64,000 bases of DNA from an uncultured Acidobacteriaceae bacterium. Its GTDB lineage: Bacteria; Acidobacteriota; Terriglobia; Bryobacterales; Bryobacteraceae. The translations under genes were made by a program, and so were the position numbers. Below are positions 5,529 through 46,600 of this stretch, piece by piece. Within the stretch, counting starts at the first letter, position 1, and each line of letters starts with the position of its first letter. Below the pieces are notes generated by a model. The model did no database searches. It was not told the DNA's origin and was given only the letters and a program-made list of their open reading frames with translations. The stretch covers positions 284,858 to 348,857 of the forward strand of contig CAVTRG010000002.1 in NCBI GenBank assembly GCA_963737045.1, written 5' to 3'.

Positions 5529-7877
5529 CTAGGTCTTCATCCGCGCCATCAAGTACAGACCGGCAAGCGAGAACACCACATCCGGCGACCACGCCGCCAT
5601 CACCGCCGGCAATTGGTTCAGATCGCCAATCTGCTCGAACAGAGTCCCGACCGTCCAGTACGCAATCGCAATACCGAAGCTGATGCCGACCCCCGTCATC
5701 GCCCCCCGATTCCCTGCCACAAACGCGAACGGAATGCTGAGAATCGCCATGATCAGCGCGAAAAGAGGAACTGCGAATTTCTTGTAGTACTGCACCTGCA
5801 GCGGCGTCGTATCCAGACCGCTCGCCTTCAGCTCCCGAATATACTGCCCGAGTTCCTGGAAGTTCATCTCCTTGTATTCCTTCTCTTCTTTCACGAACCA
5901 CGAGGGCGGCTCGTTCAGTTCGGGAAACGAGGCTGAACTGCGATAGAACTGATGATAACTGTCCGCATTGTTCCGAACCGTTTGGCTGATGCCGTTTTGA
6001 AATACCCAGGTCTTCAAGTTCGGCTCCCAGCGCGCGCGATCGGCTGAGATCTGATGCACAATGTGAAAACTTTGCGGATTCAGCTCATACACGTTCACCT
6101 TCGACATCATGGCGGCGTGCGGATCGAGGTAGCGGTAATTGTAAATGCGCGAGCCCTTTCCGTACACCCACTGCCGGTCCGGGCGCAGATACGTCTGCAC
6201 CGGTTTCTTCTTGATCTCGCTGCGCAGCATCTCCTGACGGCGATTCGCCTCGGGAATATAGTAATGGTCGAATGCAAACAGTAGACCGCTGATCAAAAGG
6301 CTCACAACTAAGACCGGCATCGCCAGCCTGTGCACACTGATGCCGCCCGCCTTGAAAGCCGTGACCTCGTTGTATTTTGTAAGAATTCCAAAACAGATCA
6401 GCGACGCCACAAGCGTGCCAATTGGCGTTAAATCGTAGATCAACTTCGGCGCAAGATGAAACAGATAATCGAGCATCATCGGCATGCCGATATCGTTCTT
6501 GATCATGTCGCCCAGCAGTTCGAAAAATGTGAAGACCTCGATCAGCGCGACGAGCGCAGTGAGTAGTATCACCAAGTAGAACAGAAAGCCGTTCAGCACA
6601 TACCCATCGATGAGCATTGGCCAAAGCCCGAATCGACGGATGTTTCTGAAGCCGAGCCGCTCCCGCCGCAATGGCCGAACCGACTTGAAAGCATCGATGG
6701 CTCGCCCTGCCAGCCCTCGCAGCCAACTCATCACATCCCGATCGCCAGGCCTCTCGAGTCTGGCCAGCAGCGTGATTCCTACCACCGCAAATATCACGTC
6801 CGGAGTCCAGACCGCAATGGGAACCGGCAGGCTCCCCTTTCTGGCCAGCCCGATCAGGCTGATGAAACCCATGTAGTACAGGAAGGCCAGCAATACCGTA
6901 AAGACGAATGCGGCGGACTTTCCGCCTTTGCGCGACGAGACGCCCAGCGGAATTCCAACCAAGCCCAACAGAATGCAGGCAAATGGAAGCGCGAACCGTT
7001 GATGCAGTTCGATTGCGGCATCCGTGTAGTCCTGCGGCGTGAGGTCATGCGCATAACGCACGCGCTTATAGAGAGGGCCCGTATCCATCTCTTGCACCGT
7101 CTTGTTGACCTGCAGATCGGCAGGCTTTTGAGCCTGCAGCGCCTCAATCTGAATGGGAGCCGCCGTCGTGATCACCTTGCCTTCTTTGTCGCGCTCACTT
7201 GTTCGCACACCGCGCATATCGAGAATGATGCGGTTGTGGGCGGCGTCCGGATGCGGAATAGCTTCTTGGGCCACGATGATTCGCGGACCTTCGCCGCGGT
7301 TCTTGCCCTGCTGCTGCAGTTCGTCAGGGGGCGTAACGTCCGCCATGAAAACCTGATGCCAGACCACCTGCTTACCCGCCGCGACCACCTCACCCACATA
7401 CAGCACCGTGTTTGGAAATTGCTCATCGAAAATCCGCGACTCAATGTCCCCGGTTAGCTGCGATGCTGCTAAATTACGTGCGATGTTCGATTCCAGATGC
7501 AGCGACAACGGCGTAAGCCAGAGTGATGCCATTGCGGTTACGGTAAGAGCGAGAAAAGCAAAGAGCAGAACCGGCCGGGCCACCGTAACGCTTGAAATGC
7601 CGGAAGCGCGCATGGCGGTAATTTCGCTGTCCGACGACATCCGGCTCAGACCGATCAGGATGCCGACAAGCACGCCCAATGGCAGCGCAAACGGAATCGT
7701 CGAAGGCAGAGCATAGAGAAAAAGCTTAGCGATCACCCCAGGCGAGGCCGACGTGCGCACCAGCAGTACAGAAAGGCGTTCGATCGTTCTCAGAAAGAGA
7801 ACAAAGACAAACAGCAGCGTTCCGAGGCTTGCGCTCGTGACAACTTCTAGGAAAATGGCCCTGCTCAGAATCCGCAT
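5529..7877 (-). CDS. LPS export ABC permease, LptF-like and LptG-like halves fused in one polypeptide (YjgP/YjgQ family)
   Basis: Uninterrupted 782-aa ORF. The first half starts MRILSRAIFLEVVTSASLGTLLFVFVLF... The second half restarts at about residue 395 with ...LIDGYVLNGFLFYLVILLTALVALIEVFTFFELLGD. Each half has an N-terminal TM bundle, a long periplasmic insert and C-terminal TM helices. Confidence 0.85.
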   Translation of the reverse strand: MRILSRAIFLEVVTSASLGTLLFVFVLFLRTIERLSVLLVRTSASPGVIAKLFLYALPSTIPFALPLGVLVGILIGLSRMSSDSEITAMRASGISSVTVARPVLLFAFLALTVTAMASLWLTPLSLHLESNIARNLAASQLTGDIESRIFDEQFPNTVLYVGEVVAAGKQVVWHQVFMADVTPPDELQQQGKNRGEGPRIIVAQEAIPHPDAAHNRIILDMRGVRTSERDKEGKVITTAAPIQIEALQAQKPADLQVNKTVQEMDTGPLYKRVRYAHDLTPQDYTDAAIELHQRFALPFACILLGLVGIPLGVSSRKGGKSAAFVFTVLLAFLYYMGFISLIGLARKGSLPVPIAVWTPDVIFAVVGITLLARLERPGDRDVMSWLRGLAGRAIDAFKSVRPLRRERLGFRNIRRFGLWPMLIDGYVLNGFLFYLVILLTALVALIEVFTFFELLGDMIKNDIGMPMMLDYLFHLAPKLIYDLTPIGTLVASLICFGILTKYNEVTAFKAGGISVHRLAMPVLVVSLLISGLLFAFDHYYIPEANRRQEMLRSEIKKKPVQTYLRPDRQWVYGKGSRIYNYRYLDPHAAMMSKVNVYELNPQSFHIVHQISADRARWEPNLKTWVFQNGISQTVRNNADSYHQFYRSSASFPELNEPPSWFVKEEKEYKEMNFQELGQYIRELKASGLDTTPLQVQYYKKFAVPLFALIMAILSIPFAFVAGNRGAMTGVGISFGIAIAYWTVGTLFEQIGDLNQLPAVMAAWSPDVVFSLAGLYLMARMKT

Positions 7878-8887: not shown

Positions 8888-11140
8888 TTGGCTACGCACA
8901 GTTTATCTGCGGCTAGAGCAAGATTTAACCGGTTCAACGTCGATCTGATCAGCGGCAAACTTCAAAGGTCCGGCGTCGGCGTTCCTATCCAGGGAAAACC
9001 CTTCCAGGTGCTGCGTTTACTCCTAATGGCGAAGGGAGAAGTTGTAAGCCGGGAACAGCTCCGTGCTGCGCTGTGGCCGGAAGACACCTTTGTTGACTTC
9101 GAGCATGGCGTCAATACGGCGGTCAAGAAGCTCCGGCAGGCGCTCGAAGACTCTGCAGAAAGCCCCAAGTTTATCGAGACCGTGCCCAAGATCGGCTATC
9201 GCTTCATTGCTTCAGTGGAGTGGGTCGCCGATGGATCCAGTGCTCATGAATCCCAAAGTCTCGAGACAAATGCTGCCGCAGAGCCGACCCCCCTTGCAGA
9301 GTCTAATCTGCTGACCCGCCGAAAGATACTGATAGCTTCGATAGCGCTCACAGCTTTTCTCGTTCTTGCTGCAACGGTCTACCTTTCCGTCCAGCATAGA
9401 TTTTTGCTGCGTGAGATCGGGGTTGGGCATCGTTCCCCGAATCAGCCTACCATCAACGAGTGGCGGTTGACGGCCAATCCTGACGATACGCCTGTAACGA
9501 GTGGCGTGATCTCGCCTGACGGGAAGCTTCTCGCATACACCGACTCGACTGGCCTCTATCTCAGGCAGGTGGACAACGGCGAGACGCATGCCGTGCCTCT
9601 GCCGAAGGGCATCGACCCGCTTGCGGAGAGCTGGTTCCCCGATGGTGTCCACCTCGTAATCTCATGGGCCGACAGTCCCCTAAGTCCGCCAGGCTTATGG
9701 CAAATATCGGTGATGGGTGGGGCTCCACGGAAACTCACGGATGAAGGCTCTTCCGCCTCACTGTCCCCGGATGGCTCTCAAATGATCTTCGTGAAACAAG
9801 CCGCCTCGGTCGAAGAACTCTGGCTGGTTCAGGCGAATGGGGGTAGAGCGAAAAGGCTAATCCGCAGCGAGGAGGATAACTTTAGTCGAGCAACTTGGGC
9901 TCCTGACGGAAAACGGTTCGCTTATGCCAGAACCAAGACGAGATACTACGCGAGCCGCCGGGTACCTGATACGCAGATTGAGCTTTTCGATCTGAATAGC
10001 GGGCAACCCGCAGTTCTTCAAGATGTGGGGGACAGAGGTTTGCCTCGTGGTGGGGCTGCTCTCGGGTGGACGCCCGATGACCGGTTGATCTTCCCTCTCC
10101 GGGAGCCTCGTCCCAATCAGCAGGATACAAACCTGTGGTCGGTGCGACTTGACCCCAGAACAGCACACCCGCTGGGCCCTTCCACGCGGATTACGAGTGG
10201 CCGAGGCATTGCCGTACAGCTCAGTCGCAGTGATAATGGCAAGCGCATTGCTTTGAGAAGACACGTTCCACAGTCCGACGTGTACGTCGCAGATGTGCTT
10301 GGCGCGGAGAAAAAACTCAGCCCGCCTCGCCGCCTGACACTGGACGAGAGGCTTGATTATGCGAGCACTTGGACACCGGATAGCAAGGCCGTCGTGTTCT
10401 ATTCCAACCGTGACGGCCCCTTCCACATTTTCAAGCAATCCATCGACGCGACGCAGCCGGAGCTACTGGTCGGCGGAGGGGATGATCTGTACCTACCCCG
10501 CTTGACCCCGGACCGATCGAGTGTGGTCTACGTAGTCCGTGCGAAGCCGGGAGGACCCTCTGACAATGCCCAGGTGATGCGAGTTCCACTGGCAGGAGGT
10601 CCACCGCAGCTTGTGCTCCAAGCGCCTGGAATCTTCGACGTTGAGTGTGCGCGATTCCCCTTCACCTTGTGTATCTATGGACAGATTCAAGCGGGACATG
10701 CGCGATTATTCACCTTTGATTCTGTGAAGGGGAAAGGTGTGGAATTGTCTCGATTGGAGAGCAATGTCGATAATTACAACTGGAGCCTTTCCCCTGACGG
10801 GAAATACTTCGCGTGGCCCAGCAATCGCACTACCTTTAAGGAATTTGGAGTGCGGATCTTCTCAGTCGGCGGCGAATGGAAGCGGGACATCGCAGTACCG
10901 CGTTGGGTAGAGATGTACGGATTGGATTGGGCTCCGGACTCAATGAGTTTGTGGGCATGCGCGCGTGACACAAAGGGTAAATGGGCTCTCCTGAACCTTC
11001 CCCTGAACGGAAAAATAAGGACGATGCTGTCTTACCCGAATTTGAATCTGGAATGGGCGATACCATCTCCTGATTCCCGTCATCTCGCCGTCGTCGAAGA
11101 TAGCAATACTTCTAATGTGTGGCTCCTGGAAAACTTTTGA
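8888..11140 (+). CDS. CadC/OmpR-type winged-helix transcriptional regulator with one TM helix and a periplasmic TolB-like beta-propeller
   Basis: TTG start. N-terminal trans_reg_C-like block (FQVLRLLLMAKGEVVSREQLRAALWPEDTFVDFEHGVNTAVKKLRQAL...IETVPKIGYRF). TM helix ILIASIALTAFLVLAATVYL. Repeated SPDG/TPDS WD40-like beta-propeller motifs (ISPDGKLLAY, LSPDGSQMIF, WAPDGKRFAY, WTPDSKAVVF, LSPDGKYFAW, PSPDSRHLAV). Confidence 0.85.
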   Translation: MATHSLSAARARFNRFNVDLISGKLQRSGVGVPIQGKPFQVLRLLLMAKGEVVSREQLRAALWPEDTFVDFEHGVNTAVKKLRQALEDSAESPKFIETVPKIGYRFIASVEWVADGSSAHESQSLETNAAAEPTPLAESNLLTRRKILIASIALTAFLVLAATVYLSVQHRFLLREIGVGHRSPNQPTINEWRLTANPDDTPVTSGVISPDGKLLAYTDSTGLYLRQVDNGETHAVPLPKGIDPLAESWFPDGVHLVISWADSPLSPPGLWQISVMGGAPRKLTDEGSSASLSPDGSQMIFVKQAASVEELWLVQANGGRAKRLIRSEEDNFSRATWAPDGKRFAYARTKTRYYASRRVPDTQIELFDLNSGQPAVLQDVGDRGLPRGGAALGWTPDDRLIFPLREPRPNQQDTNLWSVRLDPRTAHPLGPSTRITSGRGIAVQLSRSDNGKRIALRRHVPQSDVYVADVLGAEKKLSPPRRLTLDERLDYASTWTPDSKAVVFYSNRDGPFHIFKQSIDATQPELLVGGGDDLYLPRLTPDRSSVVYVVRAKPGGPSDNAQVMRVPLAGGPPQLVLQAPGIFDVECARFPFTLCIYGQIQAGHARLFTFDSVKGKGVELSRLESNVDNYNWSLSPDGKYFAWPSNRTTFKEFGVRIFSVGGEWKRDIAVPRWVEMYGLDWAPDSMSLWACARDTKGKWALLNLPLNGKIRTMLSYPNLNLEWAIPSPDSRHLAVVEDSNTSNVWLLENF

Positions 11141-14311: not shown

Positions 14312-15019
14312 TCACTCCCTCCACAGTGCTGCGCCGCCAAGCAGTCCATCGTCATTCGGGACTCGCGTTACGTGCTTTGGCAAAGCGAAATCGATCCGGT
14401 GAGCGTTGCCGCCTCCTATATAAAGGTGATCGAAGTTGAAGAGCGCTTCCAGTTGCTGAATGGCTTTCTCAACCAATTTATTCCAGCGCTTGCGACGGTA
14501 CTTTTGAAACCCGCGCCTACCGAGAAATTCCTCGTACGTTTTGTTCTTGGTCCAAGGGTGATGCGCCAGCTCGAGACCTGGCACCAGCGTGCCATTGACA
14601 AACAGAGATGATCCGAATCCGGTGCCCAGCGTGATCACCAGTTCGACCCCTCTTCCCCGAATCGCGCCAAATCCTTGAACGGCTGCGTCGTTCGCAACTC
14701 GAACGGGCTTTTTCCACCGTCTTGCGAGAACTTTCTGCAGATCGTATCCGATCCACTTCTGACTGAGATTGTGCGCCGTCAGAGTAGCCCCACGCTTCAC
14801 TACGCCGGGAAAACCCACCGATACCCGATCGAACTCTCCCAGCCGGTGCGCGACATCATCCATGACTGCCAGCATCGCTTCGGGCGTCGCAGGATTCGGA
14901 GTCGCAAGCCGTTCTCTATCCGACAGCGGCTTTCCTGCGCCGTCGAGCAACATGCCTTTTATCCCAGTGCCTCCTATGTCGAGCGCCAGAGTGGTTGGGG
15001 TCTTTTGTTGCTGAGCCAT
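14312..15019 (-). CDS. ppgK: ROK family polyphosphate glucokinase
   Basis: LALDIGGTGIKG ATP-binding loop, VANDAAVQG and TLGTGFGS blocks. The 235-aa length is typical of PpgK-type ROK kinases. Confidence 0.85.
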   Translation of the reverse strand: MAQQQKTPTTLALDIGGTGIKGMLLDGAGKPLSDRERLATPNPATPEAMLAVMDDVAHRLGEFDRVSVGFPGVVKRGATLTAHNLSQKWIGYDLQKVLARRWKKPVRVANDAAVQGFGAIRGRGVELVITLGTGFGSSLFVNGTLVPGLELAHHPWTKNKTYEEFLGRRGFQKYRRKRWNKLVEKAIQQLEALFNFDHLYIGGGNAHRIDFALPKHVTRVPNDDGLLGGAALWRE

Positions 15020-15306
15020 ACCGCCAATGTAACCTGAAGACCTCCGCTCGGTTCAGTCCATTATCCACGCGGTTAGCGAGTATTTCGCCTCTTCTTTGCG
15101 TATTGTGTGTACCTCGGTCGATTTTCAAGCCTAAGACGGTAGTTTTTGCAGATGGTGGCTATTTGAAACCCCGGTAACGCCTTGGTCCGTCACAGTGATA
15201 GAGGATGGCACTCAAGCTGCTACTACTTGAACGATAGAGATCGCGCGATATCGACGCAACACATGAAAACAATGACATCTTTTATCCTTTGGAGGAGTAA
15301 TTAACA

Positions 15307-16017
15307 ATGACCCGTAAACTGCGCTCTTTCTACATTGGCGCCCTGGCCGTCAGTGGCGTTGGCTTATTGGGAAGTGCATTCGTTCCCAAGGCGCACGCAG
15401 ATGCTTGGGACAAAATGACGATCGTGAGCGTGAATGAACCCATCATCGCGGGAAACAAAGTACTGGACCCGGGTACGTACGTATGGAAACTACTCGATTC
15501 CCCATCGAATCGCCACGTTGTCCAGATCTTCGACAAAGATCAGCGCCACCTGGAAACAACTGTTCTGGCAATTCCGAATTACCGGTTGCAACCCGACGGC
15601 AAGACGCAGTTCAGCTTCTGGGAGACTCCGGCAGGAGTTCCGAAAGCCGTTCGCGCGTGGTTTTATCCCGGTGACAATTTCGGGCAAGAGTTCCCGTACC
15701 CAAAGAAGCTGGTAGCGCAGCTTGCATCTGCCGCGCCGGTTCCGGTGCCGACAAACTATAGCGAACCCGCGCCAGCTCCTGCCCCGGTGCCTGCTCCTGC
15801 TCCAGAACCTGAAGCTCAGCCGCAGCCTGCTCCGGCCCCGCCGCCAGCCCCCGAACCTCCCGCTCCCGCGCAGGACAACTCAACGGTTGCTCCGGCACCA
15901 GCGCCTCAACAAAATGCGTTACCGAAAACCGCCAGCTTCAATCCTCTGATTGGATTGCTCGGTCTCGGATCATTGACTCTGGCCGGATTGCTGACCGTCG
16001 CAACCAAGCGGGCGTAA
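15307..16017 (+). CDS. secreted stalked protein with a C-terminal LPKTAS sortase-type sorting signal
   Basis: GGAGG ribosome-binding site upstream. Signal peptide ending AHA. Globular domain of about 120 aa (..WFYPGDNFGQEFPYPKK). Pro/Ala spacer of about 70 aa. LPKTAS at nt 15919-15936 is followed by 22 hydrophobic residues and TKRA at the C-terminus. Confidence 0.7.
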   Translation: MTRKLRSFYIGALAVSGVGLLGSAFVPKAHADAWDKMTIVSVNEPIIAGNKVLDPGTYVWKLLDSPSNRHVVQIFDKDQRHLETTVLAIPNYRLQPDGKTQFSFWETPAGVPKAVRAWFYPGDNFGQEFPYPKKLVAQLASAAPVPVPTNYSEPAPAPAPVPAPAPEPEAQPQPAPAPPPAPEPPAPAQDNSTVAPAPAPQQNALPKTASFNPLIGLLGLGSLTLAGLLTVATKRA

Positions 16018-16121
16018 CGGTTCCAATAGAACGTAAGCAGACAGGACCCGTCGCTCCGTTCCGCGCGTCAGCCGGAATGAGTCGGCGGGTTCTTTTCACG
16101 TGAGAGTATGCCGAGGGTGCA

Positions 16122-17075
16122 TTGAGGTACGGGCTCATCGGAATCCTCGCATTCGCCTTGCCTCCGTTGTTGCTTTTAAGCGCTCCGAACCAAGACCAGA
16201 CCGCTTTTACGATTTCGGACAATGTAAATCTCGTTCTTCTTGATGTAAGTGTGAAAGATTCACAGGGAGGTTACGCCAGCGGACTCACGCAAGCCGACTT
16301 CCATGTCTTCGAGGAAGGTCGTCCTCAAAAGATCACTGCATTTGCGAATGTGGATACGCCCGTTACGGTCGGCCTGGTAGTGGATAACAGCGGAAGCATG
16401 CGATTCAAGCGCCCACAAGTCGTTCTCGCCGGTTTGGCATTCGCGAAAGAAAGCAACCCGAAGGATGAGTTCTTTGTCATAAATTTCAACAATCACATCG
16501 TTCGCGGGCTTCCTGAGAAGATTCCGTTTACAGATAATCTCCAAAAGCTGAGGTCCGCACTCTACTATGGCGAGCCAGCCGGGCAAACGGCGCTCTATGA
16601 TGCGATTGCGTATTCGCTCAAACATCTCGAACTCAGCCGCCAGGACAAGAGAACCCTCATCGTGGTCAGCGATGGCGGCGATAACGTTAGCCGCACTTCC
16701 CTGCCCGAGTTGATGACCTTGATTGAGGCTTCGCGAGCGACAATCTACACGATCGGTCTGTTCGATCCGAATGATAGGGATTCCAATCCGCGCGTTCTTC
16801 GGAAACTCGCGAGAGTCAGCGGCGGTGAATTCTTCGAGCCGAATGCACTCAACGAAATATTGCCGGTATTCCACAAAATATCGGTCGATATCAGGAGCCG
16901 CTACTCCATCGGCTATATTCCTGAGGACATCGGATCCAAGCGTGTCCTCCGGTCGATTCGAGTTACGGCAACGGCCAAGGATTATCGGAAGTTAATCGTG
17001 CGTACCCGGAGCGCCTACAGCACCACCCCGTTCTCAGAATTGACTTCCCGGAACGCGGTACATAAAAAGAAGTAA
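16122..17075 (+). CDS. VWA (von Willebrand factor A) domain protein, acidobacterial VWFA-related type
   Basis: TTG start. N-terminal hydrophobic anchor/signal. Beta-sandwich-like leader (VNLVLLDVSVKDSQGGYASGLTQADFHVFEEGRPQKI). MIDAS DxSxS in VVDNSGSM, with downstream T (GQTALYD) and D (VVSDGGDN) positions. Confidence 0.85.
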   Translation: MRYGLIGILAFALPPLLLLSAPNQDQTAFTISDNVNLVLLDVSVKDSQGGYASGLTQADFHVFEEGRPQKITAFANVDTPVTVGLVVDNSGSMRFKRPQVVLAGLAFAKESNPKDEFFVINFNNHIVRGLPEKIPFTDNLQKLRSALYYGEPAGQTALYDAIAYSLKHLELSRQDKRTLIVVSDGGDNVSRTSLPELMTLIEASRATIYTIGLFDPNDRDSNPRVLRKLARVSGGEFFEPNALNEILPVFHKISVDIRSRYSIGYIPEDIGSKRVLRSIRVTATAKDYRKLIVRTRSAYSTTPFSELTSRNAVHKKK

Positions 17076-17087
17076 GTTTCGCGTAAC

Positions 17088-17873
17088 ATGAACGGCTCAG
17101 CAACGCTCAGGCCCCGCGAAGAACCGCGCTTCATCCAGCCTGGCCTTCATAGTCACAATCGTAATCGGCGGCTTGACCCCCATCCGGCAAGGCATCGCAT
17201 CGTGCGATACGTCCGCGCCATGCTGTTCATTCTCGGCTTGTGCGGAATCGGCTATTACGCATACGCCCTCTCGGATCAGTACGTCTACCAAGCGTACGAG
17301 AACTGGGCCTTTGATAAGAAAATTGCAGGCCACGACGTCACTTTTTCAGACTATGTAAGACAACGCACTCCCTTCGGATTCCTTGCTGGAGCAGGAACAC
17401 CCACCACTAAGGTGTCCCTTGCCCCCGCGAGTTCGGCACCAGCACAGGTGCGGCCTCAGGAGGGCGCAGTGCTAGGCCGTGTTCAAATTCGCCGACTGAA
17501 CCTTTCGGCCATCGTGCGTGAAGGAGTGGACGAGAAAACATTGAGCCGCGCTGTCGGGCACCTCCCCTATACCGCTATGCCCGGCCAGCCAGGTAACTTC
17601 GCGATTGCCGCACACAGGGACACCCTTTTCAGAGCGCTCAAGGACATTCAAACGGGTGATCGGGTCACTTTTCAATCCGACAGCGGAACATTCACCTATG
17701 AAGTAGTTTCGACCAGCATTGTCAGACCCTCCGATCTCAGCGTTGTTCAACCACAAGGAACCGACAAGCTGCTCACCATGATTACCTGTTATCCGTTCTA
17801 TTACGTCGGTTCTGCTCCGAAGCGGTTCATAGTGCGAGCGACGTTAATTGACATTGTTTCGCATCCCTCCTGA
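17088..17873 (+). CDS. sortase family transpeptidase, membrane anchored
   Basis: Starts 12 nt after the VWA stop. TM helix MLFILGLCGIGYYAYAL. Catalytic His in NFAIAAHRD, Cys in LTMITCYPF (TLxTC-like), Arg in RFIVRATL. Confidence 0.85.
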   Translation: MNGSATLRPREEPRFIQPGLHSHNRNRRLDPHPARHRIVRYVRAMLFILGLCGIGYYAYALSDQYVYQAYENWAFDKKIAGHDVTFSDYVRQRTPFGFLAGAGTPTTKVSLAPASSAPAQVRPQEGAVLGRVQIRRLNLSAIVREGVDEKTLSRAVGHLPYTAMPGQPGNFAIAAHRDTLFRALKDIQTGDRVTFQSDSGTFTYEVVSTSIVRPSDLSVVQPQGTDKLLTMITCYPFYYVGSAPKRFIVRATLIDIVSHPS

Positions 17874-17933
17874 TTTAATTGCAAATTGCGCAGATGACAG
17901 ACCCGTAACTTTGCATTAGCATGGTTAACCAGA

Positions 17934-18665
17934 ATGAAACCGAGTTACCGCCAATGGCTGGAGCAGCAGAAGTATGATGCTGGAACGATCAATACGCAAA
18001 TTGCTCGATGCAAACGCGTCCAAGAGTACTACGGGGATCTTGACGAGGGCTACGCAGATGATCATCTCGCAAGCCTTATCGAAACTCTACGATACACAAA
18101 GGCGGACCAGCGAAACAATCGACTGAATCCGAGCAAAATTCCCATTGACGGCGATATCCATAACAATTTGGCATCATATCGTGCTTCAGTGCAGCTATAT
18201 CGGAGGTTTCGTGAGGCGATTCGCGATCTGCCGGATGCAGGTGTTCCCATAGACGAAGGCGGGATCAGACTACCCGAGGAACCATTGAATCAATGGATCA
18301 GTCTGGAGCGCGATATGCAAGCGGGACTCAGACTCGATATCAGCCAGCTGGAACAGGGCTTGACTATCATCGATGATGGTTCCGAACGGTCTGTAGATTC
18401 TGGGCTGATCGATATAACAGCGCGCGATGCTGCTGGTGCCACGGTCGTGATTGAACTTAAGGCAGGACCGGTTGGCCAGCGCGCAGTTGCACAAATTCTT
18501 ACCTATATGGGCGATCTAATCAGCGAGGAAGAATACGCAAGAGTGCGTGGAATCCTCGTCGCCTCAAGTTTCGATGCAAAGGCGAAAGCGGCCGCGAAGG
18601 CGGTACCGACCCTGGCGTTGCGCAAATACAGCGTGCGGTTTCTGTTCTCAGACGGGAACGCTTAG
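17934..18665 (+). CDS. NucS/DUF91-like PD-(D/E)XK nuclease-domain protein with an uncharacterised N-terminal domain
   Basis: The C-terminal block GLIDITARDAAGATVVIELKAGPVGQRAVAQILTYMGDL carries the D...E-x-K nuclease core as in NucS/EndoMS C-terminal domains. N-terminal 140 aa not recognised. Confidence 0.7.
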   Translation: MKPSYRQWLEQQKYDAGTINTQIARCKRVQEYYGDLDEGYADDHLASLIETLRYTKADQRNNRLNPSKIPIDGDIHNNLASYRASVQLYRRFREAIRDLPDAGVPIDEGGIRLPEEPLNQWISLERDMQAGLRLDISQLEQGLTIIDDGSERSVDSGLIDITARDAAGATVVIELKAGPVGQRAVAQILTYMGDLISEEEYARVRGILVASSFDAKAKAAAKAVPTLALRKYSVRFLFSDGNA

Positions 18666-20512: not shown

Positions 20513-23035
20513 TTACTCGTGCCTCAGCGCCACTATCGGATCCACCTTCGTCGCGCGCCGTGCAGGTATATAGCAAGCCAGCAGTGCGATTATTGTCAAA
20601 ACCGCCGCGACGGCTCCGAACGTGACTGGATCTTCCGGACTAACTCCAAACAAAAATCGAGCAATCACCCGGGTTAACGCAAACGCCAACGCGCCGCCAA
20701 CCACCACTCCGGCCAGCGTTAGCTTGAGCCCCAATTTCGTAACTAGGCCCAGCACGCTCGCCCGCTCGGCACCCAACGCGATGCGAATGCCGATCTCGCG
20801 CGTCCGCTCGCTCACGAAGTAAGACATCACTCCGTATATTCCTACCGCCGCCAGCAGCAGCGCCATCGCCGCAAAGATCTCGAGCAAACGCATCACAAAC
20901 TTTGAATCGTCAATCGAAACGGCGAGGAAACGCTGCATCGTTGTGATATCGGTAACCGGTTCGTCCGGATCTATCTTCGAGACCACCTTCCTGATATTCG
21001 AGGCGAAATCGTGATCCCAACTCGACCCAGGCGACACCCGTACAAAGATGTTCTGCGAAGTGTGAGAGATGGTGCTGCCTCCGGGAAAGATCGCCGGCTG
21101 CTGGAGGTACGAGGCGTACACCATCGGCGGAGGAGTCTTTTCTGCTAGCCCGAAATACTTCACGTCGCCGACCACTCCGACGATTTCGCGCGGCCGCTCT
21201 TCGTCTATCTTGTACGGTTCGTATTGCAACAGCAGTCGCTTGCCGATCGCATCTTCGTTCGGAAAGTAGTGCCGCGCAAAGGTCTCGGTGACAACAACGG
21301 CCCAAGGCATGCTTCCCCGGTCAGACTCGCTCAAATAGCGGCCCTTCTTCAACGGAATCCGCAAGGTATGAAACAAGGACGGGCTCGCTTCGGCGTATGC
21401 AGCTTCCGGCCTTCTCTCGGGCGCGGGAGCCGGACGTCCAAGGATGGAAAACGTTATGCCTCTGATCATCTGGCTCATCGTCCCCACCGCTTCGATGCTC
21501 GGCTGGCCGGTTATGCTTTCGAGCAGATGCTGGTAGAAAAGCGTCACCAGCGGAGACGTTTTTTCCATGTCCCCACCGGGCACCCTTTCGACGTACTTCC
21601 CTCCTTCCGGCAAAGACGTTCCGCCGACCATGACGTTCTTCGTATCAACGCCCGGGTCGACCTGCTTCAAACGAAGCACCGTATTGATCATGAGACCGGC
21701 GCCCACAAGCAGTAACATTGCAAGCGCCACTTCAGACACAGCGAGCAAGTGACGACTCCACCCGCGTGATCCAGCCACTCTCGTGCGGTCGCCCTGTCGA
21801 ATGACCGCATTCAGATCAGCCTTGGACGCACGCAGAGCGGGTCCGGCCCCGAACAATATCGGCGTCAGCAGACAGAGACCCAGCGTGAACAGCAACACCC
21901 GGCCATCGACACCCATGCTGTCGGCATTAGGAAAACCGAGGCCTCCCGGAGCAACCCATTGGCCTTGGGCAAGCTTCAGGAAAAATTGAATACCCAAAAA
22001 CGTGAGCCCGATTCCAAGCGCGCCGCCCAGAAAAGCCAGCAGTCCGCTCTCAACCAGTAATTGCTGCATAATACGCCGTCGTCCCGCTCCCAGTGAGGCT
22101 CGTACGGCCTGCTCTTTCCGGCGTGTCTCGGTCCGGGCCTGCGATAGATTCGCTACGTTCAGGCAAGCAATCAACAGCACAAAACCCACGGCTCCCAGGA
22201 ATGGGTAAAGCGTTCGTGCCCAGCCGAAAATCGCTTCGTGCAAGGGCACAAGTTTCGCCCGAATTCCCTTATTGCTCTTCGGATACGCTCGCTCGAGTCG
22301 CTGCTCGATAACGTTCATTTCGGCTTGCGCTTGGGCAAGTGTCACCCCTGGCTTGAGCCGTCCCACCGGCATCAACCAGCCCCTATCTTTGCGTTCTGAA
22401 TATCTCGCGCTCTCCGGATTAATGGGCACCCAGCCATCGACTCTTTCCCCTTGAAACGGAGCAAAGTGGGGCGGCATGATGCCCACGACTGTAGACATAA
22501 CGCCTCCAATCTCGAACGTTTTTCCGATCACCTTCGGATCGCTGCCGAATCGCCGTTTCCAGAAAGCATCGCTGATGAGAACCGTTTGATTCAGATCGTG
22601 AATTTCGCCTTTGGTGAACACTCGTCCTAAAGCCGGGTTCACGCGCAGTACGCTGAAGAAGTTCGGCGTAACGGCTTGGGCGCGAATCGGCTCTGGCTGA
22701 CCGCCTCGCGCCATGCGCAACCCCTCGGGGCCGCTCGCTAATGCGATGTCCTCGAAAACATGGTTCTGCTTATTCCAATCGACTAGTTCCGCAATCGGCG
22801 GCCCTTCTTCGGAACCCGGTTCTGCCTGCTCGGTTTCCCAAATCACCATCAGCCGGTCAGGGTCGTCATACGGCAAAGGACGGTAGAGCTCCGCATTGAT
22901 CACGCTGAACATCGTGCTGTTCGCCGCGATTCCAAGAGCAAGTGAGGCAATCACTACCACGGCAAATCCCGGCGATCTTCCCAGGCTGCGAACGGCGTAG
23001 CGGACGTCTTGGTACAGACTCTCGAATGTACGCAC
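20513..23035 (-). CDS. ADOP-type duplicated ABC transporter permease (MacB/FtsX-like), no adjacent PadR
   Basis: 840 aa. N-terminus ..YQDVRYAVRSLGRSPGFAVVVIASLALGIAANSTMFSV. Two MacB-like periplasmic domains, each followed by an FtsX 4-TM module. C-terminus ARRATKVDPIVALRHE. Confidence 0.9.
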   Translation of the reverse strand: MRTFESLYQDVRYAVRSLGRSPGFAVVVIASLALGIAANSTMFSVINAELYRPLPYDDPDRLMVIWETEQAEPGSEEGPPIAELVDWNKQNHVFEDIALASGPEGLRMARGGQPEPIRAQAVTPNFFSVLRVNPALGRVFTKGEIHDLNQTVLISDAFWKRRFGSDPKVIGKTFEIGGVMSTVVGIMPPHFAPFQGERVDGWVPINPESARYSERKDRGWLMPVGRLKPGVTLAQAQAEMNVIEQRLERAYPKSNKGIRAKLVPLHEAIFGWARTLYPFLGAVGFVLLIACLNVANLSQARTETRRKEQAVRASLGAGRRRIMQQLLVESGLLAFLGGALGIGLTFLGIQFFLKLAQGQWVAPGGLGFPNADSMGVDGRVLLFTLGLCLLTPILFGAGPALRASKADLNAVIRQGDRTRVAGSRGWSRHLLAVSEVALAMLLLVGAGLMINTVLRLKQVDPGVDTKNVMVGGTSLPEGGKYVERVPGGDMEKTSPLVTLFYQHLLESITGQPSIEAVGTMSQMIRGITFSILGRPAPAPERRPEAAYAEASPSLFHTLRIPLKKGRYLSESDRGSMPWAVVVTETFARHYFPNEDAIGKRLLLQYEPYKIDEERPREIVGVVGDVKYFGLAEKTPPPMVYASYLQQPAIFPGGSTISHTSQNIFVRVSPGSSWDHDFASNIRKVVSKIDPDEPVTDITTMQRFLAVSIDDSKFVMRLLEIFAAMALLLAAVGIYGVMSYFVSERTREIGIRIALGAERASVLGLVTKLGLKLTLAGVVVGGALAFALTRVIARFLFGVSPEDPVTFGAVAAVLTIIALLACYIPARRATKVDPIVALRHE

Positions 23036-31582: not shown

Positions 31583-31846
31583 TCGATCCGTGGACAATCG
31601 TGAACAGGCTTATTCGAGATTCTCAATGAGCATGTGAAGTCGTTGAGTTCGGGGGAGAGCCCCTGCCTCGTGCTAACAATTGCGCAACATGCCCCATCTT
31701 CCGCATATGCTGGCGCACTTGCAACATGGCATTCCTGCCTGAGCAGGCCGAGCAAATGCGCCAGGAGCTGTCCCGGTGCGGGATCCAAGAAGAGCGGTGT
31801 CCAGGCAAACACGAACAAAATCCGGGGATCCTGCGTCTCTCGTTCA

Positions 31847-34276
31847 ATGGGCTCGATGTTCACGGAATTGAGGTACGCAGTTCGCCTTCTAAGGCAAAGT
31901 CCCGTTTTTAGCACATTCGCTGTGTTGTCGCGGGCGTTAGGCTTGGCGGCGAACATCGCCATATTCTCTGTCGTAAACGGTATTTTGCTGAAGCCTCTGC
32001 CGTTTGCCAGCCAGGAACGGCTCTTCGGAATTGTCGAGATTGTGCCTAAGATCGCGAATCTCTATCCGATGCTGCCGGTCAATCCGCGCCATGAGGATGA
32101 ATGGAAGAAGAGGGTGCCGGGCATCGAAAAGGTCGGCTTGGCCCAGGGAAAGCACGTGATTTTGGGCGGGGGTTCGCAGCCGCTCCGGCTTGCTTCCGAA
32201 GCCGTTACGCCGGATCTGCTCGCAACGCTCCAGGTTCAGCCCTTGATGGGCCGGCTGATTCAGCCTTTCGACGCCGAGGAGGGCCATGAACACGTCGCGC
32301 TGCTGACGTATTCGTTGTGGCAGGGCCAGCTCGGAGGCGATCCAAAGATTATAGGTTGCGATGTTCGTCTGGACGGAACTCCGTACCGGGTCATCGGTGT
32401 TTTACCGCGGTGGTTTCGTTTTCCGTTAACCGGTTCGCTGTTTGACAATGACTCGCAGCCGGAGCTTCTTACTCCTCTGCCACTTCGTCTTTCACAGCAT
32501 AGCTGGGAGGGGGATTTCAACTATTCCGCAATCGCTCGCCTGAAGCCCGGTGTCCGGCGCGAGCAGGCGTTGGCCATGCTCAACACTGCCCAAGCGGCGA
32601 TTTCTAAAACGTTCCCCGACAAAATGGAGATCCGCGCAGATTTGTTCCCGCTGAACGATCTTGCCGTCCATAGCTCGCGAACGTCGCTGCTTTTGGTACT
32701 GGGGGCTGTCGGTGCGGTCTTGCTGATTGTGTGCTTGAACCTGGCCACGCTGATGCTGGCTCGCGGAGCGCTTAGGAATCGCGAGATTGCCGTCAGGACC
32801 GCTCTCGGAGCCGGCAGGTGGAGACTGATCCGCGAGTCCTTCATGGAGGCAGTCGTGCTTTCAGCGATCGGAGGGACTGTCGGCGTCTTACTCGCGAAGG
32901 CTGGCTTGAAGCTGATTCTTGCTGCGGCTCCGGTGATACTTCCGAGAAGAGACCAGGTGGGAATTGATCTCAATGTTCTGCTCTTTGCGTTGGGATTGAC
33001 CCTCGTTACTGCTCTGGTGTTCGGCTTGTATCCTGCCTGGCGGCAATCGCGGCGGGACCCACAGGAGGCACTCGCAGCATGGAGCCGCTCGAGCACTGGA
33101 TCTAAAACCAGCACGCGAAGCCGAAGCATTCTGGTTGCCGTGGAAGTAGGGTTAAGCACGGTGCTGCTGATGGTCGGCGGCCTGCTGATCGCAAGTTTTG
33201 AACGGGTGTTGAACACAGACCTCGGTTTTGAGATTTCAAATCACGTGTCGGCGCAGCTAAGCCTCCCGGATGCAAGCTACAGTAAACACGAAAACGCGGT
33301 TGCGTTCTATGACAAGCTGCTCGATAAACTATCGAGTCAGCCAGGGATTCGTAAAGCAGCGCTCGTTTCGCATTTGCCGCTTAGCGGCGAGACATGGATT
33401 GATGTGATGGCCCGGCAGGGAGACACACGTCCGATGTTTCAGAGGCCCACGACCAATGTGCGCTTCATCAGTGGATCCTATTTCGAAGCCATGGGAATTC
33501 CGTTACGGGGCGGGAGAACATTCACGCGGGCGGACAAGAAAAATAGCGTTGCGATTATCAGCAACACGGTCGCAAAGGGCCTATGGCGAGCGGAGGACCC
33601 GGTCGGGCGAACACTGCTGCTTCAGGACACGCCTTTACACGTGATCGGGGTAGCCGGAGACACACACGCCGACATCGATAAGAGTGCTCCATCGGTCGTG
33701 TATGTTCCGTATTGGCAAAAGGAACCAGCGGACACGCGGGACTTGAACGTCGTTTTGCGCTCGTCCGTTCCTGCAGCCGATCTGGTCAGGATTCTTCGGC
33801 AGAGCGTAGCAAAGGTCGATAGAGGCGTTGCGATTTCCCATGTAGAGACCTTCCGTAAAGTGCTTTCCGATGCCGTTTCGCAGCGCCGTTTCCAAATGCT
33901 GATGGTAGGTGCATTTGCAATCTCGGCGCTGCTGGTCGCGGCACTTGGAATTTTCGCCGTTATCGCAGAAATGGTTTCGGCTAGAAGAAACGAGATCGGC
34001 ATCCGCATGGCTTTGGGCGCAAGTACGGCGGGTGTGGTCGGAATGGTAATACGCCAAGGAATGCTGCCGGTACTCGTGGGCTTATGTTCCGGCGTTCTGG
34101 TTACGCTTGGGTTTGGATCGGCTATCGGAAAGCTGCTCTATCAAGTACGTCCTGCCGATCCCTTCACCTTCGCCGCGGTCACGCTGTTACTCAGTGGTGT
34201 CGCGGTGTTCGCTTGTTGGATTCCTGCACGGCGGGCGGCGCGCATCGATCCTATGGCGGCCCTGCGATATGAATAG
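31847..34276 (+). CDS. ADOP-type duplicated ABC transporter permease (MacB/FtsX-like), no adjacent PadR
   Basis: Start moved to the ATG at 31847 (MGSMFTELRYAVRLLRQSPVFSTFAVLSRALGLAANIAIFSV), matching the family N-terminus. Two FtsX modules. C-terminus ARRAARIDPMAALRYE. Confidence 0.9.
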   Translation: MGSMFTELRYAVRLLRQSPVFSTFAVLSRALGLAANIAIFSVVNGILLKPLPFASQERLFGIVEIVPKIANLYPMLPVNPRHEDEWKKRVPGIEKVGLAQGKHVILGGGSQPLRLASEAVTPDLLATLQVQPLMGRLIQPFDAEEGHEHVALLTYSLWQGQLGGDPKIIGCDVRLDGTPYRVIGVLPRWFRFPLTGSLFDNDSQPELLTPLPLRLSQHSWEGDFNYSAIARLKPGVRREQALAMLNTAQAAISKTFPDKMEIRADLFPLNDLAVHSSRTSLLLVLGAVGAVLLIVCLNLATLMLARGALRNREIAVRTALGAGRWRLIRESFMEAVVLSAIGGTVGVLLAKAGLKLILAAAPVILPRRDQVGIDLNVLLFALGLTLVTALVFGLYPAWRQSRRDPQEALAAWSRSSTGSKTSTRSRSILVAVEVGLSTVLLMVGGLLIASFERVLNTDLGFEISNHVSAQLSLPDASYSKHENAVAFYDKLLDKLSSQPGIRKAALVSHLPLSGETWIDVMARQGDTRPMFQRPTTNVRFISGSYFEAMGIPLRGGRTFTRADKKNSVAIISNTVAKGLWRAEDPVGRTLLLQDTPLHVIGVAGDTHADIDKSAPSVVYVPYWQKEPADTRDLNVVLRSSVPAADLVRILRQSVAKVDRGVAISHVETFRKVLSDAVSQRRFQMLMVGAFAISALLVAALGIFAVIAEMVSARRNEIGIRMALGASTAGVVGMVIRQGMLPVLVGLCSGVLVTLGFGSAIGKLLYQVRPADPFTFAAVTLLLSGVAVFACWIPARRAARIDPMAALRYE

Positions 34277-43641: not shown

Positions 43642-46600
43642 TTACATTCGCCGCTCGGCTTCGGCGTCGAGCAGATGCAGGATCAAGCGGAACGGCATGC
43701 CTGCGAGATCGCGCTTGTTGCTGATATCGTCGCGGATATCGAGGAGAGCGCGTTCGAGTAAATTAACAGCGAGCAATAACTGCTGTTGTGCTTCCGAAAC
43801 CGGCAAATAGGGAGCACCTTTGGCTGCGTTCCAGTAACCGCGGAGAAAAGCAGCACTCACGTGTGAGTACCAGAAGCGCCCCCACACTCTAAGCTTCTGT
43901 AGAGCCGCTGTCTCGTTACGCTCACCCGTAGCTAACTGGCGTGCTGAGGATTGCGCCGCATAACCGAACGAAACGAGCATGCTCGCGACATCTCGAAGCG
44001 GGCAACGCTTAATCCGCCGCTCGCTAATAGGCAGATCCGGATCGCCAGCGAAATCAAACATCGACACATCACCGTCAGTCACGAGAAAGTGGCCGAGATG
44101 AAGACGGCCATTGTAGCGAGTCCGCATAGACGCGATACGCTGATCGAAAATAGCCCGAAAACGCGAGATGATCGCGTCTTCCTGCTCGAGGACTTTGGCC
44201 GCAAGCACTCGAAGAAACTCGGTCATGTCCGAATAGCGCTGACGCAGAAACTCGAACCGACGGCTCGTCAGTGCGACATAACTGTGGTATAGACTCTGGC
44301 GGTAGAAGTCGTTGAAGGGTTCGGGCGCAAAAGCTGGGTCGGAAGAATCGTGCGCCAATATCAGATGGAATTCGGCGGTGCGTTTCCCCATGATCTGTGC
44401 GAGCGAGAGATATGCCCCGATCAGGTCTTTCGCGAGCGCGGGTGGCTCGGCGAGAGCAAAATTTAGCGCATAAAAGTTCGTGGGAGCTGAAGTCTCGACC
44501 TCGAGCCTCGAGTGCTTCGACTGCTGGACGGTGTCGAAAAAGGCCGTCAAGTCATCCCTAGTGTGCCTCCAGGCGTCGCCTCTGTTCCGGACAAAGCCGT
44601 GGAGGACAGCGAACGCGCTGCGTTCGCCCGCTTCGAGCGTGTATTCAAGAGAGCCAGCGAACGGAACAGCATAGGGAAACGGATGCTGCTCGGTTAAAAG
44701 CTGGCCCATCTCGACTTCGGGATGAGGGCCGAGCTGAACGCTACGCAGAAGCTTAAGCACGAAGCGATCCCCAAAGCGGATGGAAGTATTGACCTCAGAG
44801 GCGGCCTCATGCGTGGGTTCCAGGTTCGGATGAGTCGATCCCCAGAGACGGCGAAACTCACGGTTGCGCTCGGCAACTAGGACACCAGATTCACCTACAA
44901 AACGCTTGCGCCGTGCAAAAGCTTCAAGCAGCAAGCTCGAAAACTCATCGCTCGCTGTCGCATCATACAGAAACGTGCGTGTGCCATCAGAAGCGCGTAT
45001 CTCGGCGATTAAAGCTTCCGGATGCTCATCCTGAAGTAGTTGCGCTTCATCGCCACGCGCGGATCCGACCGGTAGCAGATACGTCTCCGGATCGCCCACC
45101 GTATATTCGACCCGGACCAGCAACACAACGTATCTGTTGTGTGAAATGGGCACGACTTCCCTGATTTCGATCGAGCGAAATCGGCGATCTTTACTGCGAA
45201 ACCAACGCCGCGACGTCAGGAATCTCGGCAGAATCGCTGCAATATTAACCCGAACCGCCGCGTCCCAAATGCTCGCTAATTCCTGGACGGCGACGATCGG
45301 TACTCCCAAATGCCCGGTGTGCACTCGTTGAGCAGAAATCGGAAGGGCAGCCGCCCGTGGCTCCAGTGAAAACCAATAAAACGAGTTTGGCCCTAGCGTT
45401 AAGGGATAAGCACGGTCACCGATAACCGGGAAATCCGTCCGCCCGAACATCTCCACAGGTGTGCAGCCGGTATATCTGTGTAGATCGAGTTCGACAGGTT
45501 GGGCAAATCGCGACAGGTTTGCAATGACCAGAATGGACTCTTGCTCATACCGCCTGATAAAGACGATTACGCGCTGGTTCGGCGGCTGCAGAAATTCAAG
45601 AGTCCCGCGGCCGAATGCCTTGTACTGCTTGCGCAGGGCAATCAAACGCTTCATCCAGCTCAGCAATGAATGCGGATTGTCTTGCTGCGCCTCGACATTG
45701 ATGGATTCGTAATGATAGGCGGGATCGATATTGACGGGCAGGTACAACTTCTGCGGATTGGCGGACGAAAACCCGGCATTGCGATCTGGGCTCCACTGCA
45801 TGGGTGTACGAACGCCGTTTCGATCTCCGAGATACACGTTGTCACCCATTCCGATCTCATCGCCGTAATAGATCACGGGGGTGCCGGGGAGCGAAAACAA
45901 GAGTGCATTCATGACCTCGATGCGGGGGCGATCATTGCCGAGCAGCGGAGCGAGGCGGCGGCGAATACCGAGGTTGATGCGGGCGCGTTGATCGGCCGCG
46001 TACACGCGGTACATGTAGTCGCGTTCCTCATCGGTGACCATTTCAAGCGTGAGCTCATCGTGGTTGCGGAGGAACATGGCCCATTGGCATGTCTCCGGAA
46101 TTGTCGGCGTGCGACGAAGGATCTCAACTATTGGAAGGCGATCTTCAAGGCGCAGAGCCATGAATAAGCGCGGCATCAGAGGAAATTGGAAGGACACGTG
46201 GCACTCGTCTCCGCTCCCGAAATAAGCGACCGCATCTTCCGGCCACATGTTCGCCTCAGCTAAAAGCATGCGATTCGGATACTTTTCGTCGAGATGGCGG
46301 CGGAGCTCCTTCAAAAATGCGTGCGTCTCCGGAAGATTCTCACAATTCGTGCCTTCCCGCTCATAGAGGTATGGAATCGCATCGAGCCGGAATCCATCGA
46401 CACCCATCTCGGCCCAGAAATCGAGAGTGTGCATGACCGCACGCCGGACGACGGGATTATCGAAATTCAAATCAGGCTGGTGTGAGTAAAAGCGGTGCCA
46501 ATAATAAGCTTTTGCTACTGGATCCCAGCTCCAATTCGACGGCTCAAAATCCTTGAAAATAATACGAGTGCCTGCATACTTGTCGGGAGTATTGCTCCAA

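Follow-up and report, generated by a model that had tools for sequence, protein, structure and literature searches.

Known sortase systems

Sortase genes have been known from Gram-negative genomes since the early 2000s, and in a 2021 review they are described as not well characterised (PMC8225981). Dedicated cassettes were predicted earlier, with examples from Shewanella, Colwellia and Bradyrhizobium, and include the class GN sortase (TIGR03784), which is encoded beside a single von Willebrand factor A (VWA)/ITI-type LPXTG target (TIGR03788) (PMC3237569, PMC8225981). The cassette described here is located at positions 15307-17873 of a 64,000-nucleotide stretch of DNA (the window; contig CAVTRG010000002.1 of assembly GCA_963737045.1) from an uncultured member of the Acidobacteriota, a phylum abundant in soils (PMC3174227). 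It comprises gene 1, encoding a predicted sortase substrate with a head, a linker and a C-terminal sorting signal, followed by a VWA gene and the gene of a class D-like sortase. A literature search on sortases combined with Acidobacteria or Acidobacteriota yielded nothing beyond evolutionary essays and a COG-based count (PMC3174227) that gives six sortase genes for Solibacter usitatus; no description of the cassette was found.

The closest described enzymes are the class D sortases, represented by SrtC of Bacillus anthracis (2LN7), YhcS of Bacillus subtilis and SrtD of Clostridium perfringens (4D70). They gave the best hidden Markov model (HMM) and Protein Data Bank (PDB) matches, and they share with the acidobacterial enzyme an N-terminal membrane anchor, a His-Cys-Arg triad with the motifs HRDT, TCYPF and AP-x-R, an LPxTA-type motif on the substrate and a small number of substrates encoded nearby. 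SrtC of B. anthracis links LPNTA substrates to the amine of diaminopimelate (DAP) (PMC8225981). In contrast to the Bacillus and Clostridium systems, an outer membrane is present here, which would place the reaction in the periplasm; the head of the substrate is unrelated and unannotated, a VWA gene is interposed, control is of the sigma-54 type and not linked to sporulation, and the enzyme scores below the generic class D cut-off.

The class GN systems of marine proteobacteria (Shewanella, Colwellia and others) resemble the present locus in that a dedicated sortase lies beside one target in a Gram-negative organism, a VWA domain is involved, and both systems are known from genomes only. The acidobacterial sortase fails the class GN model (TIGR03784, 86.9 bits, cut-off 158.25), and the VWA protein fails the model of the class GN target (TIGR03788, 24.6 bits, cut-off 551.65). 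The class GN target carries the VWA domain and the LPXTG signal on one protein, whereas here they are divided between two, the signal-bearing protein has a different head, and the phylum is another one. Gram-positive pilus loci likewise combine a structural LPxT protein (the major pilin), a VWA tip adhesin (RrgA, SpaC) with a metal ion-dependent adhesion site (MIDAS) and a sortase of class C. In the acidobacterial locus the enzyme falls outside class C, a sorting signal is missing from the VWA protein, the substrate has no invariant lysine, and an immunoglobulin-like pilin fold was not detected.

Two further kinds of system are comparable in part. Protein-peptidoglycan links of the L,D-transpeptidase kind, as in Braun's lipoprotein and peptidoglycan-attached outer-membrane proteins, stabilise the envelope (PMC8263019). 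They share with the present proposal a protein placed on the meso-DAP of a thin periplasmic wall; enzyme family and chemistry differ entirely, the attachment would here run through the C-terminal Thr carboxyl that cleavage creates, and no outer-membrane anchor is evident on the gene 1 product. The PEP-CTERM/exosortase and GlyGly-CTERM/rhombosortase systems have a tripartite signal and cassettes of adjacent enzyme and target genes (PMC3237569), and an abundant target is reported to be RpoN-dependent (PMC9850573). Their enzymes are unrelated and polytopic, and their motifs differ from those found here. Sortase cassettes in diderms are thus not unprecedented, and the acidobacterial one would be new in its class D-like enzyme, in the division of VWA domain and sorting signal between two proteins, and in a head for which no family model exists.

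Organisation of the cassette

All window coordinates refer to the + strand unless (-) is given. Re-reading of the open reading frames (ORFs) returned exactly the positions and spacing of the sequence-only reading from which the analysis started, namely three co-directional ORFs separated by 104 and 12 nt. Gene 1 (15307..16017, 236 aa) was assigned as a predicted sortase substrate by ORF, homologue and model analysis. It is followed by the VWA gene (16122..17075, 317 aa, TTG start) and the sortase gene (17088..17873, 261 aa). Genes for identical VWA and sortase proteins are annotated in a public NCBI record. In NCBI records of orthologous loci from metagenome-assembled genomes (MAGs) of Bryobacteraceae and Acidobacteriaceae, the sortase is named 'class D sortase' and the neighbouring gene 1 'hypothetical protein'.

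The gene 1 product starts with a signal peptide (residues 1-31, 15307-15399, predicted cleavage site AHA|DAW), followed by the head (residues 32-145, 15400-15741) and a linker rich in Pro, Ala, Glu and Gln (residues 146-204, 15742-15918). The C-terminus reads LPKTASFNP, then 20 hydrophobic residues and finally KRA, so that motif (LPKTAS, 15919-15936), transmembrane helix and basic tail (helix plus KRA, 15937-16014) are all present.

Conservation of the sorting signal and pairing with the sortase

This tripartite signal, which had been recognised from the letters alone, was retained as LP[KH]T[AGS]-x-x-P, helix and basic tail in 120/120 closest homologues, with Ala after the Thr in 100, Gly in 17 and Ser in 3. 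In a diverged set of 151 sequences (150 representatives plus the window protein), [LM]PxT[AGS] with the tail was found in 108; many of the members without it resemble fragments or frameshifted gene calls. The LPXTG anchor models PF00746 and TIGR01167 gave 14.7 (cut-off 20) and 8.0 (cut-off 15.9) for the window protein, and an orthologue with LPKTGS (P0004) exceeded both cut-offs with 20.1 and 16.9. A search for other sorting-signal tails in the 64-kb window returned gene 1 as the sole real ORF; one other match to the loose pattern was a 61-aa ORF without LPxT. Related loci amounting to about 1 Mb contain 79 ORFs that end in this way, and 78 of them are members of the gene 1 family. The tail of gene 1 is therefore not a chance occurrence.

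Relatives of gene 1 numbered more than 4700 among clusters built at 90% identity. A search with the head only returned 2780 clusters at 50% identity, 1615 of these below an E-value of 1e-10. Genomes were scanned in a collection with one genome per species, in which at least 571 stretches encode a relative of gene 1, and the best 80 of these were used as loci for comparison. Apart from a single contig assigned to Solirubrobacteraceae, all 80 are from Acidobacteriota MAGs (Bryobacterales, Terriglobia, 'Acidobacteriaceae').

The order gene 1, VWA gene, sortase gene on one strand was present in 67/80 gene 1 copies of these loci, and two further copies are followed by the sortase without a VWA gene. 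The remaining copies are mostly at contig ends, frameshifted or additional gene 1 copies. Searches begun from sortase homologues recovered the same trio. The flanks vary by lineage, and the flanking genes tatA, tatC and ROK are kept only among the closest relatives, which indicates that the three genes move together. A sortase is also adjacent in distant members whose tails read MPQTAS or MPRTAS, with or without a VWA gene. The sequence-only reading had asked whether homologues of gene 1 would lack the signal or stand apart from a sortase elsewhere, and neither was the pattern observed.

On the basis of this co-variation, that is synteny, the linkage of distant MPxTAS tails to a sortase, and the lack of a sortase beside signal-less paralogues (see below), gene 1 very probably encodes the cognate substrate of the sortase, and it is probably the main or only one in this lineage. 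The earlier description as a dedicated module thus holds for the linkage of signal and enzyme. It is less secure for the term 'single substrate', and some MAGs contain extra gene 1 copies without a sortase of their own (L056, L057); as judged from these genomes, the system is not strictly limited to one substrate per genome.

Two or three gene 1 copies were observed in some Bryobacterales MAGs (L060 5992-11595; L047/L056; L052/L057). The copies in L060 form a convergent pair sharing one sortase, and elsewhere they occupy separate loci with the VWA gene only or with neither partner. Directly downstream of the sortase gene in the window, a 243-aa protein with a NucS-type endonuclease C-terminal domain is encoded (17934-18665). 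This gene was placed outside the operon because it is not kept beside the cassette in relatives.

Sortase

The sortase is predicted to be anchored by a transmembrane helix (residues 44-61, 17217-17270). Residues 132-253 matched the Pfam Sortase family PF04203 with 114.9 bits (gathering score 26.6). The best NCBIfam match was NF058671 ('class D sortase, LPxTATN-specific'), which aligned end to end with 145.3 bits (cut-off 140). Lower scores were obtained with the models of class E (108 bits), class GN (given above), class C (76.9, cut-off 160) and class F (19.5). The closest PDB entries were of class D as well, namely 2LN7 of B. anthracis (E 2e-19) and 4D70 of C. perfringens, with the common motifs named above.

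The sequence-only reading had proposed a His-Cys-Arg triad and had recommended a comparison with the sortase classes. His, Cys and Arg occur in the expected order and align with the class D structures: H176 (17613-17615), C234 (17787-17789) and R246 (17823-17825) are conserved in at least 95% of 72 orthologues and align to 2LN7. The choice of R250 in 'FIVRAT' as the arginine has to be corrected, as this residue is less than 50% conserved and aligned with Glu in 2LN7; the predicted catalytic Arg is R246 (KRF). The class comparison led to a class D-like assignment, for which the NF058671 match, the nearest structures, the naming in NCBI records and the prevalence of Ala after the Thr of the motif (100/120) were taken together. 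Ala at this position fits the LPxTA specificity of class D (PMC8225981).

VWA protein

The VWA protein matched TIGR03436, an acidobacterial VWFA family, with 170.7 bits (cut-off 81.25), and also the Pfam families VWA_2 and VWA. The MIDAS motif, DNSGS in the window protein (D88-x-S90-x-S92, 16383-16397), is completed by T156 and D184, and all five residues are kept across 73 orthologues. The intact DxSxS motif had been noticed before, as had the lack of a sorting signal: no LPxT tail with a transmembrane helix was found, and the C-terminus is not conserved. The proposed N-terminal anchor did not stand. The N-termini of the orthologues mostly look like cleavable-type Sec signal peptides (for example ...LFAQ|NAS and ...VLAQ|TAQ), and for this reason the protein is probably soluble in the periplasm rather than anchored.

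The stop codon of the VWA gene overlaps the start of the sortase gene by 4 nt in 32/70 loci, and in 62/70 no more than 10 nt separate the two genes. In one locus (L017 6644-8575), the VWA protein and the sortase are read as a single ORF of 643 aa. A genuine fusion was rejected; the sortase Met and its transmembrane helix are retained, the topology of such a fusion would be wrong, and a lost stop codon or an assembly error is most likely.

Head and linker of gene 1

The head is about 90% identical among close relatives, with WFYPGDNFGQEF-x-YPK as the standout motif, and no family match was obtained for it in Pfam or NCBIfam. Searches of PDB, Pfam and NCBIfam with the whole gene 1 product returned only low-complexity noise from the linker. 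The AlphaFold2 model of the full-length protein had a predicted local distance difference test (pLDDT) of 80. The head was modelled confidently (predicted template modelling score (pTM) of 0.77 for the head only) as a small domain of about ten beta strands with a helix cap. Foldseek comparison of the models with the PDB gave nothing with an E-value below 0.001. PH, PTB and Rpn13-like sandwich folds were considered, for which the best Foldseek matches reached a probability of at most 0.2 and a template modelling score of about 0.3, and no fold was assigned.

The linker comprises 62-100 residues (median 70) in the orthologues and 56-226 in diverged members, and is rich in Ala, Pro, Thr, Glu and Gln across the family. 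At full extension it would reach a length on the order of the width of the periplasm.

K133, the lysine of the terminal YPK motif of the head, shows 99% conservation among close orthologues. Among the 108 signal-bearing representatives, K133 is present in 84 and K36 in 94, and no lysine is invariant. K133 was tried as a dedicated pilin-type nucleophile and rejected, since E, R, T or N stands in its place in 24/108 signal-bearing representatives and it is kept in some signal-less ones.

Paralogues that have the head without a sorting signal were examined in three cases (P0202, P0400, P0192), and a sortase was not present within 5 kb of any of them. The C-terminal part of P0202 (L082 3687-4796) consists of two OsmY/DolP-like BON domains, a type that annotation describes as binding lipids or membranes, and P0202 is encoded beside a BON protein, Omp85 and a POTRA protein. 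P0400 (L083 5001-6050) and P0192 (L088 5001-6200) have a different C-terminal region, and a second one of the three paralogues adjoins a BON protein and a sigma-54 activator. The replacement of the sorting signal by BON domains suggests that the C-terminal module serves as an envelope tether, and hints that the head is a general envelope module which may be tethered in different ways.

Further variants were noted. Head-only members without a membrane tail also occur (P0205, P0213). On a short contig, a head-only member of 204 aa with a Lys-rich tail and no transmembrane helix is followed directly by a 416-aa VWA protein (P0213/L090, 55-1986). Pairing of head and VWA protein may thus be independent of the sorting signal.

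Expression signals

Upstream of gene 1, a sigma-54-type promoter was detected in the upstream-region alignment (-24 TGGCAC, -12 CTGC; TGGCACTCAAGCTGCT, 15206..15221) as TGGCAC-N5-CTGC. The spacing TGG-N9-TGC occurs within the same 140-nt upstream window in 62/68 gene 1 copies, against 0.059 expected per window; the logo obtained from them reads TTGGCA..AA..TGC. A conserved box, GTAGTTTTTGCA (GTA-x-TTTTT-x-CA, 15139..15150), lies further upstream, about 65 nt from the -24 element. When the window was aligned with six related upstream regions, the columns G-T-A-x-TTTTT-x-C of this box proved invariant; binding of an activator or of IHF is a possible role. No Sigma54_activat gene was found among the scanned ORFs of the window. 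A strong ribosome-binding site, GGAGGAG (15291..15297), is located 9 nt before the ATG, and TGGAGGA is kept in relatives.

Between gene 1 and the VWA gene lies a terminator- or attenuator-like element (16046..16098), in which a hairpin (16046-16090, dG -28.8 kcal/mol) precedes TCTTTTCA. Terminator-like elements were counted downstream of gene 1 in 28/77 loci, compared to 19/246 control windows. In a simple scan for promoters and terminators neither signal was enriched over shuffled sequences, and both became clear only by comparison across loci. An Rfam scan of 14900-18100 gave no match. From this layout one would expect an inducible, abundant structural protein that outnumbers the VWA protein and the sortase.

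Proposed reaction

The window encodes a fused LptF/LptG of 781 aa (5529-7877 (-); Pfam LptF_LptG in two stretches, 480 bits) and the peptidoglycan-recycling enzyme AnmK, an anhydro-MurNAc kinase. These two genes confirm an outer membrane with lipopolysaccharide and a peptidoglycan wall, in line with the outer membrane indicated by the sequence-only reading. The same LptF/LptG fusion was seen in a related locus (L001).

The preferred reading, held tentatively, is that the sortase anchors the gene 1 product to meso-DAP of peptidoglycan or lipid II in the periplasm. Gene 1 would be transcribed from the sigma-54-type promoter and translated from its strong ribosome-binding site, and the hairpin would probably let few transcripts continue into the VWA and sortase genes, a pair that is often translationally coupled in relatives; much substrate and little enzyme would result. 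After Sec export and cleavage at AHA|DAW, the C-terminal helix with KRA would keep the gene 1 protein in the inner membrane. The sortase, anchored by its N-terminal helix, would expose its catalytic domain to the periplasm and cleave LPKT|AS, with Thr208 held as a thioester on Cys234. These steps follow from the anatomy of the proteins together with the known mechanism of sortases. The intermediate would most likely be resolved by the side-chain amine of meso-DAP on lipid II or peptidoglycan, an acceptor preferred because the enzyme is closest to class D, in which B. anthracis SrtC uses the DAP amine. In the product, the head would stand about 60-100 residues off the wall on an extended Pro/Ala stalk, with the secreted VWA/MIDAS protein as its probable non-covalent partner, outside the catalytic step. 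The observations cover the anatomy of the cassette, the enzyme class, the match of substrate with enzyme and the expression signals; which amine serves as acceptor, what the head does and how the VWA protein contributes are what we infer beyond them.

The cassette offers an unusually clean entry point, with one enzyme, one obvious substrate, a partner protein, a clear regulatory signature, a wide distribution in Acidobacteriota and a head well conserved among close relatives. The identity of the acceptor would show whether diderms decorate their thin wall by means of sortases, and work on it would also define a new envelope protein family for which no Pfam or NCBIfam model exists.

Several points weigh against anchoring to peptidoglycan as set out here. 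Catalysis and acceptor are predictions, and the peptidoglycan type of the organism is assumed. A tether or scaffold role of the head is a guess, as the head has no detectable relative of known function. NF058671 was passed narrowly, and the generic class D model NF033746 gave 132.9 bits, below its cut-off of 165. Otherwise intact cassettes without the VWA gene exist (L040, L074, L086), from which it follows that the sortase step does not require the VWA protein. A sigma-54 promoter and a terminator after the structural gene form the layout of many major pilin genes, and this arrangement would fit a polymer equally well.

Alternative explanations

A broader proposal goes beyond anchoring: gene 1 would supply the material from which the sortase assembles a covalent envelope structure. 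This could be a fibre, joined head-to-tail or through Lys, or a tether between the wall and the outer membrane. The proposal is considered unlikely. In its tether version, the peptidoglycan-linked stalk and the head with its MIDAS VWA partner would set or stabilise the architecture of the periplasm under sigma-54 control. If true, sortases would thereby gain their first function in Gram-negative bacteria, and diderms would have a third enzymatic route for linking proteins to peptidoglycan.

Ligation of gene 1 to the VWA protein or another envelope protein, instead of peptidoglycan, appears rather improbable. It would account for the position of the VWA gene between substrate and enzyme in about 90% of cassettes, for its frequent translational coupling to the sortase gene, and for head-VWA pairs without a nearby sortase (L056; P0213/L090). 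A candidate acceptor lysine, K96 of the VWA protein, is 97% conserved among orthologues, but is not diagnostic because a lysine at this position follows the MIDAS motif generally in VWA domains (Pfam VWA_2 consensus). The cassettes without a VWA gene argue against such a ligation, and no precedent was found for a class D sortase joining two proteins.

About the same low probability is given to mere processing, in which the sortase would act as a protease with water as nucleophile and release head and stalk from the inner membrane, to give a soluble protein that is either periplasmic or secreted. In general, a sortase that finds no nucleophile hydrolyses its substrate, and the head-only paralogues without a membrane tail (P0205, P0213) would match such a product. 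A cleavable signal peptide alone would give a soluble protein, however, which makes a tripartite signal with a dedicated enzyme a costly route, and the long conserved stalk suggests a tethered product.

Formation of a covalent polymer is less probable again. Thr208 would be joined to an amine, of a lysine or of the new N-terminus, on the next gene 1 subunit, and a pilus-like or periplasmic fibre with the VWA protein as adhesive or terminal component would result. The order of structural gene, VWA/MIDAS gene and sortase gene resembles that of Gram-positive pilus loci, K133 is nearly invariant in close orthologues, and the expression layout is that of many major pilin genes. Against this stand the variation of K133 and K36 among signal-bearing members, the class C score far under its cut-off, the head without a match to an immunoglobulin-like pilin fold, and the lack of an outer-membrane export component in the operon; moreover, a VWA protein that lacks a sorting signal cannot be built in as a tip by the established route.

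The least probable alternative is an acceptor amine outside both proteins and peptidoglycan, for example that of phosphatidylethanolamine, an aminolipid or a polysaccharide; the product would be a lipid- or glycan-anchored protein, which could reach the outer membrane. In its favour, the tripartite layout is shared with rhombosortase and exosortase systems found in diderms (PMC3237569), and the reported RpoN dependence of an abundant PEP-CTERM protein (PMC9850573) parallels the sigma-54-type control. Against it, the enzyme is a true sortase whose nearest relatives are the class D enzymes that use DAP, and no lipid or glycan acceptor is known for that class.

Other features of the window

Some further features of the window were recorded. 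At 8888-11140, a 750-aa protein of unusual regulator architecture is encoded, which combines an OmpR/PhoB-type winged helix (Trans_reg_C) with PD40/TolB-like beta-propeller repeats. Two large MacB/FtsX-type permeases (MacB_PCD plus FtsX) are located at 20513-23035 (-) (840 aa) and 31634-34276 (880 aa). A trehalose cluster at 43642-49383 (-) contains a 1122-aa fusion of an alpha-amylase/TreS-like protein and a maltokinase cap near a GT20 (OtsA-like) trehalose-phosphate synthase. At 60965-63929 (-), a 2-oxoglutarate dehydrogenase E1-like gene is split over two overlapping ORFs, the one with E1_dh and an acyltransferase fragment and the next with Transket_pyr and OxoGdeHyase_C; the split could be a frameshift, a sequencing error or programmed.

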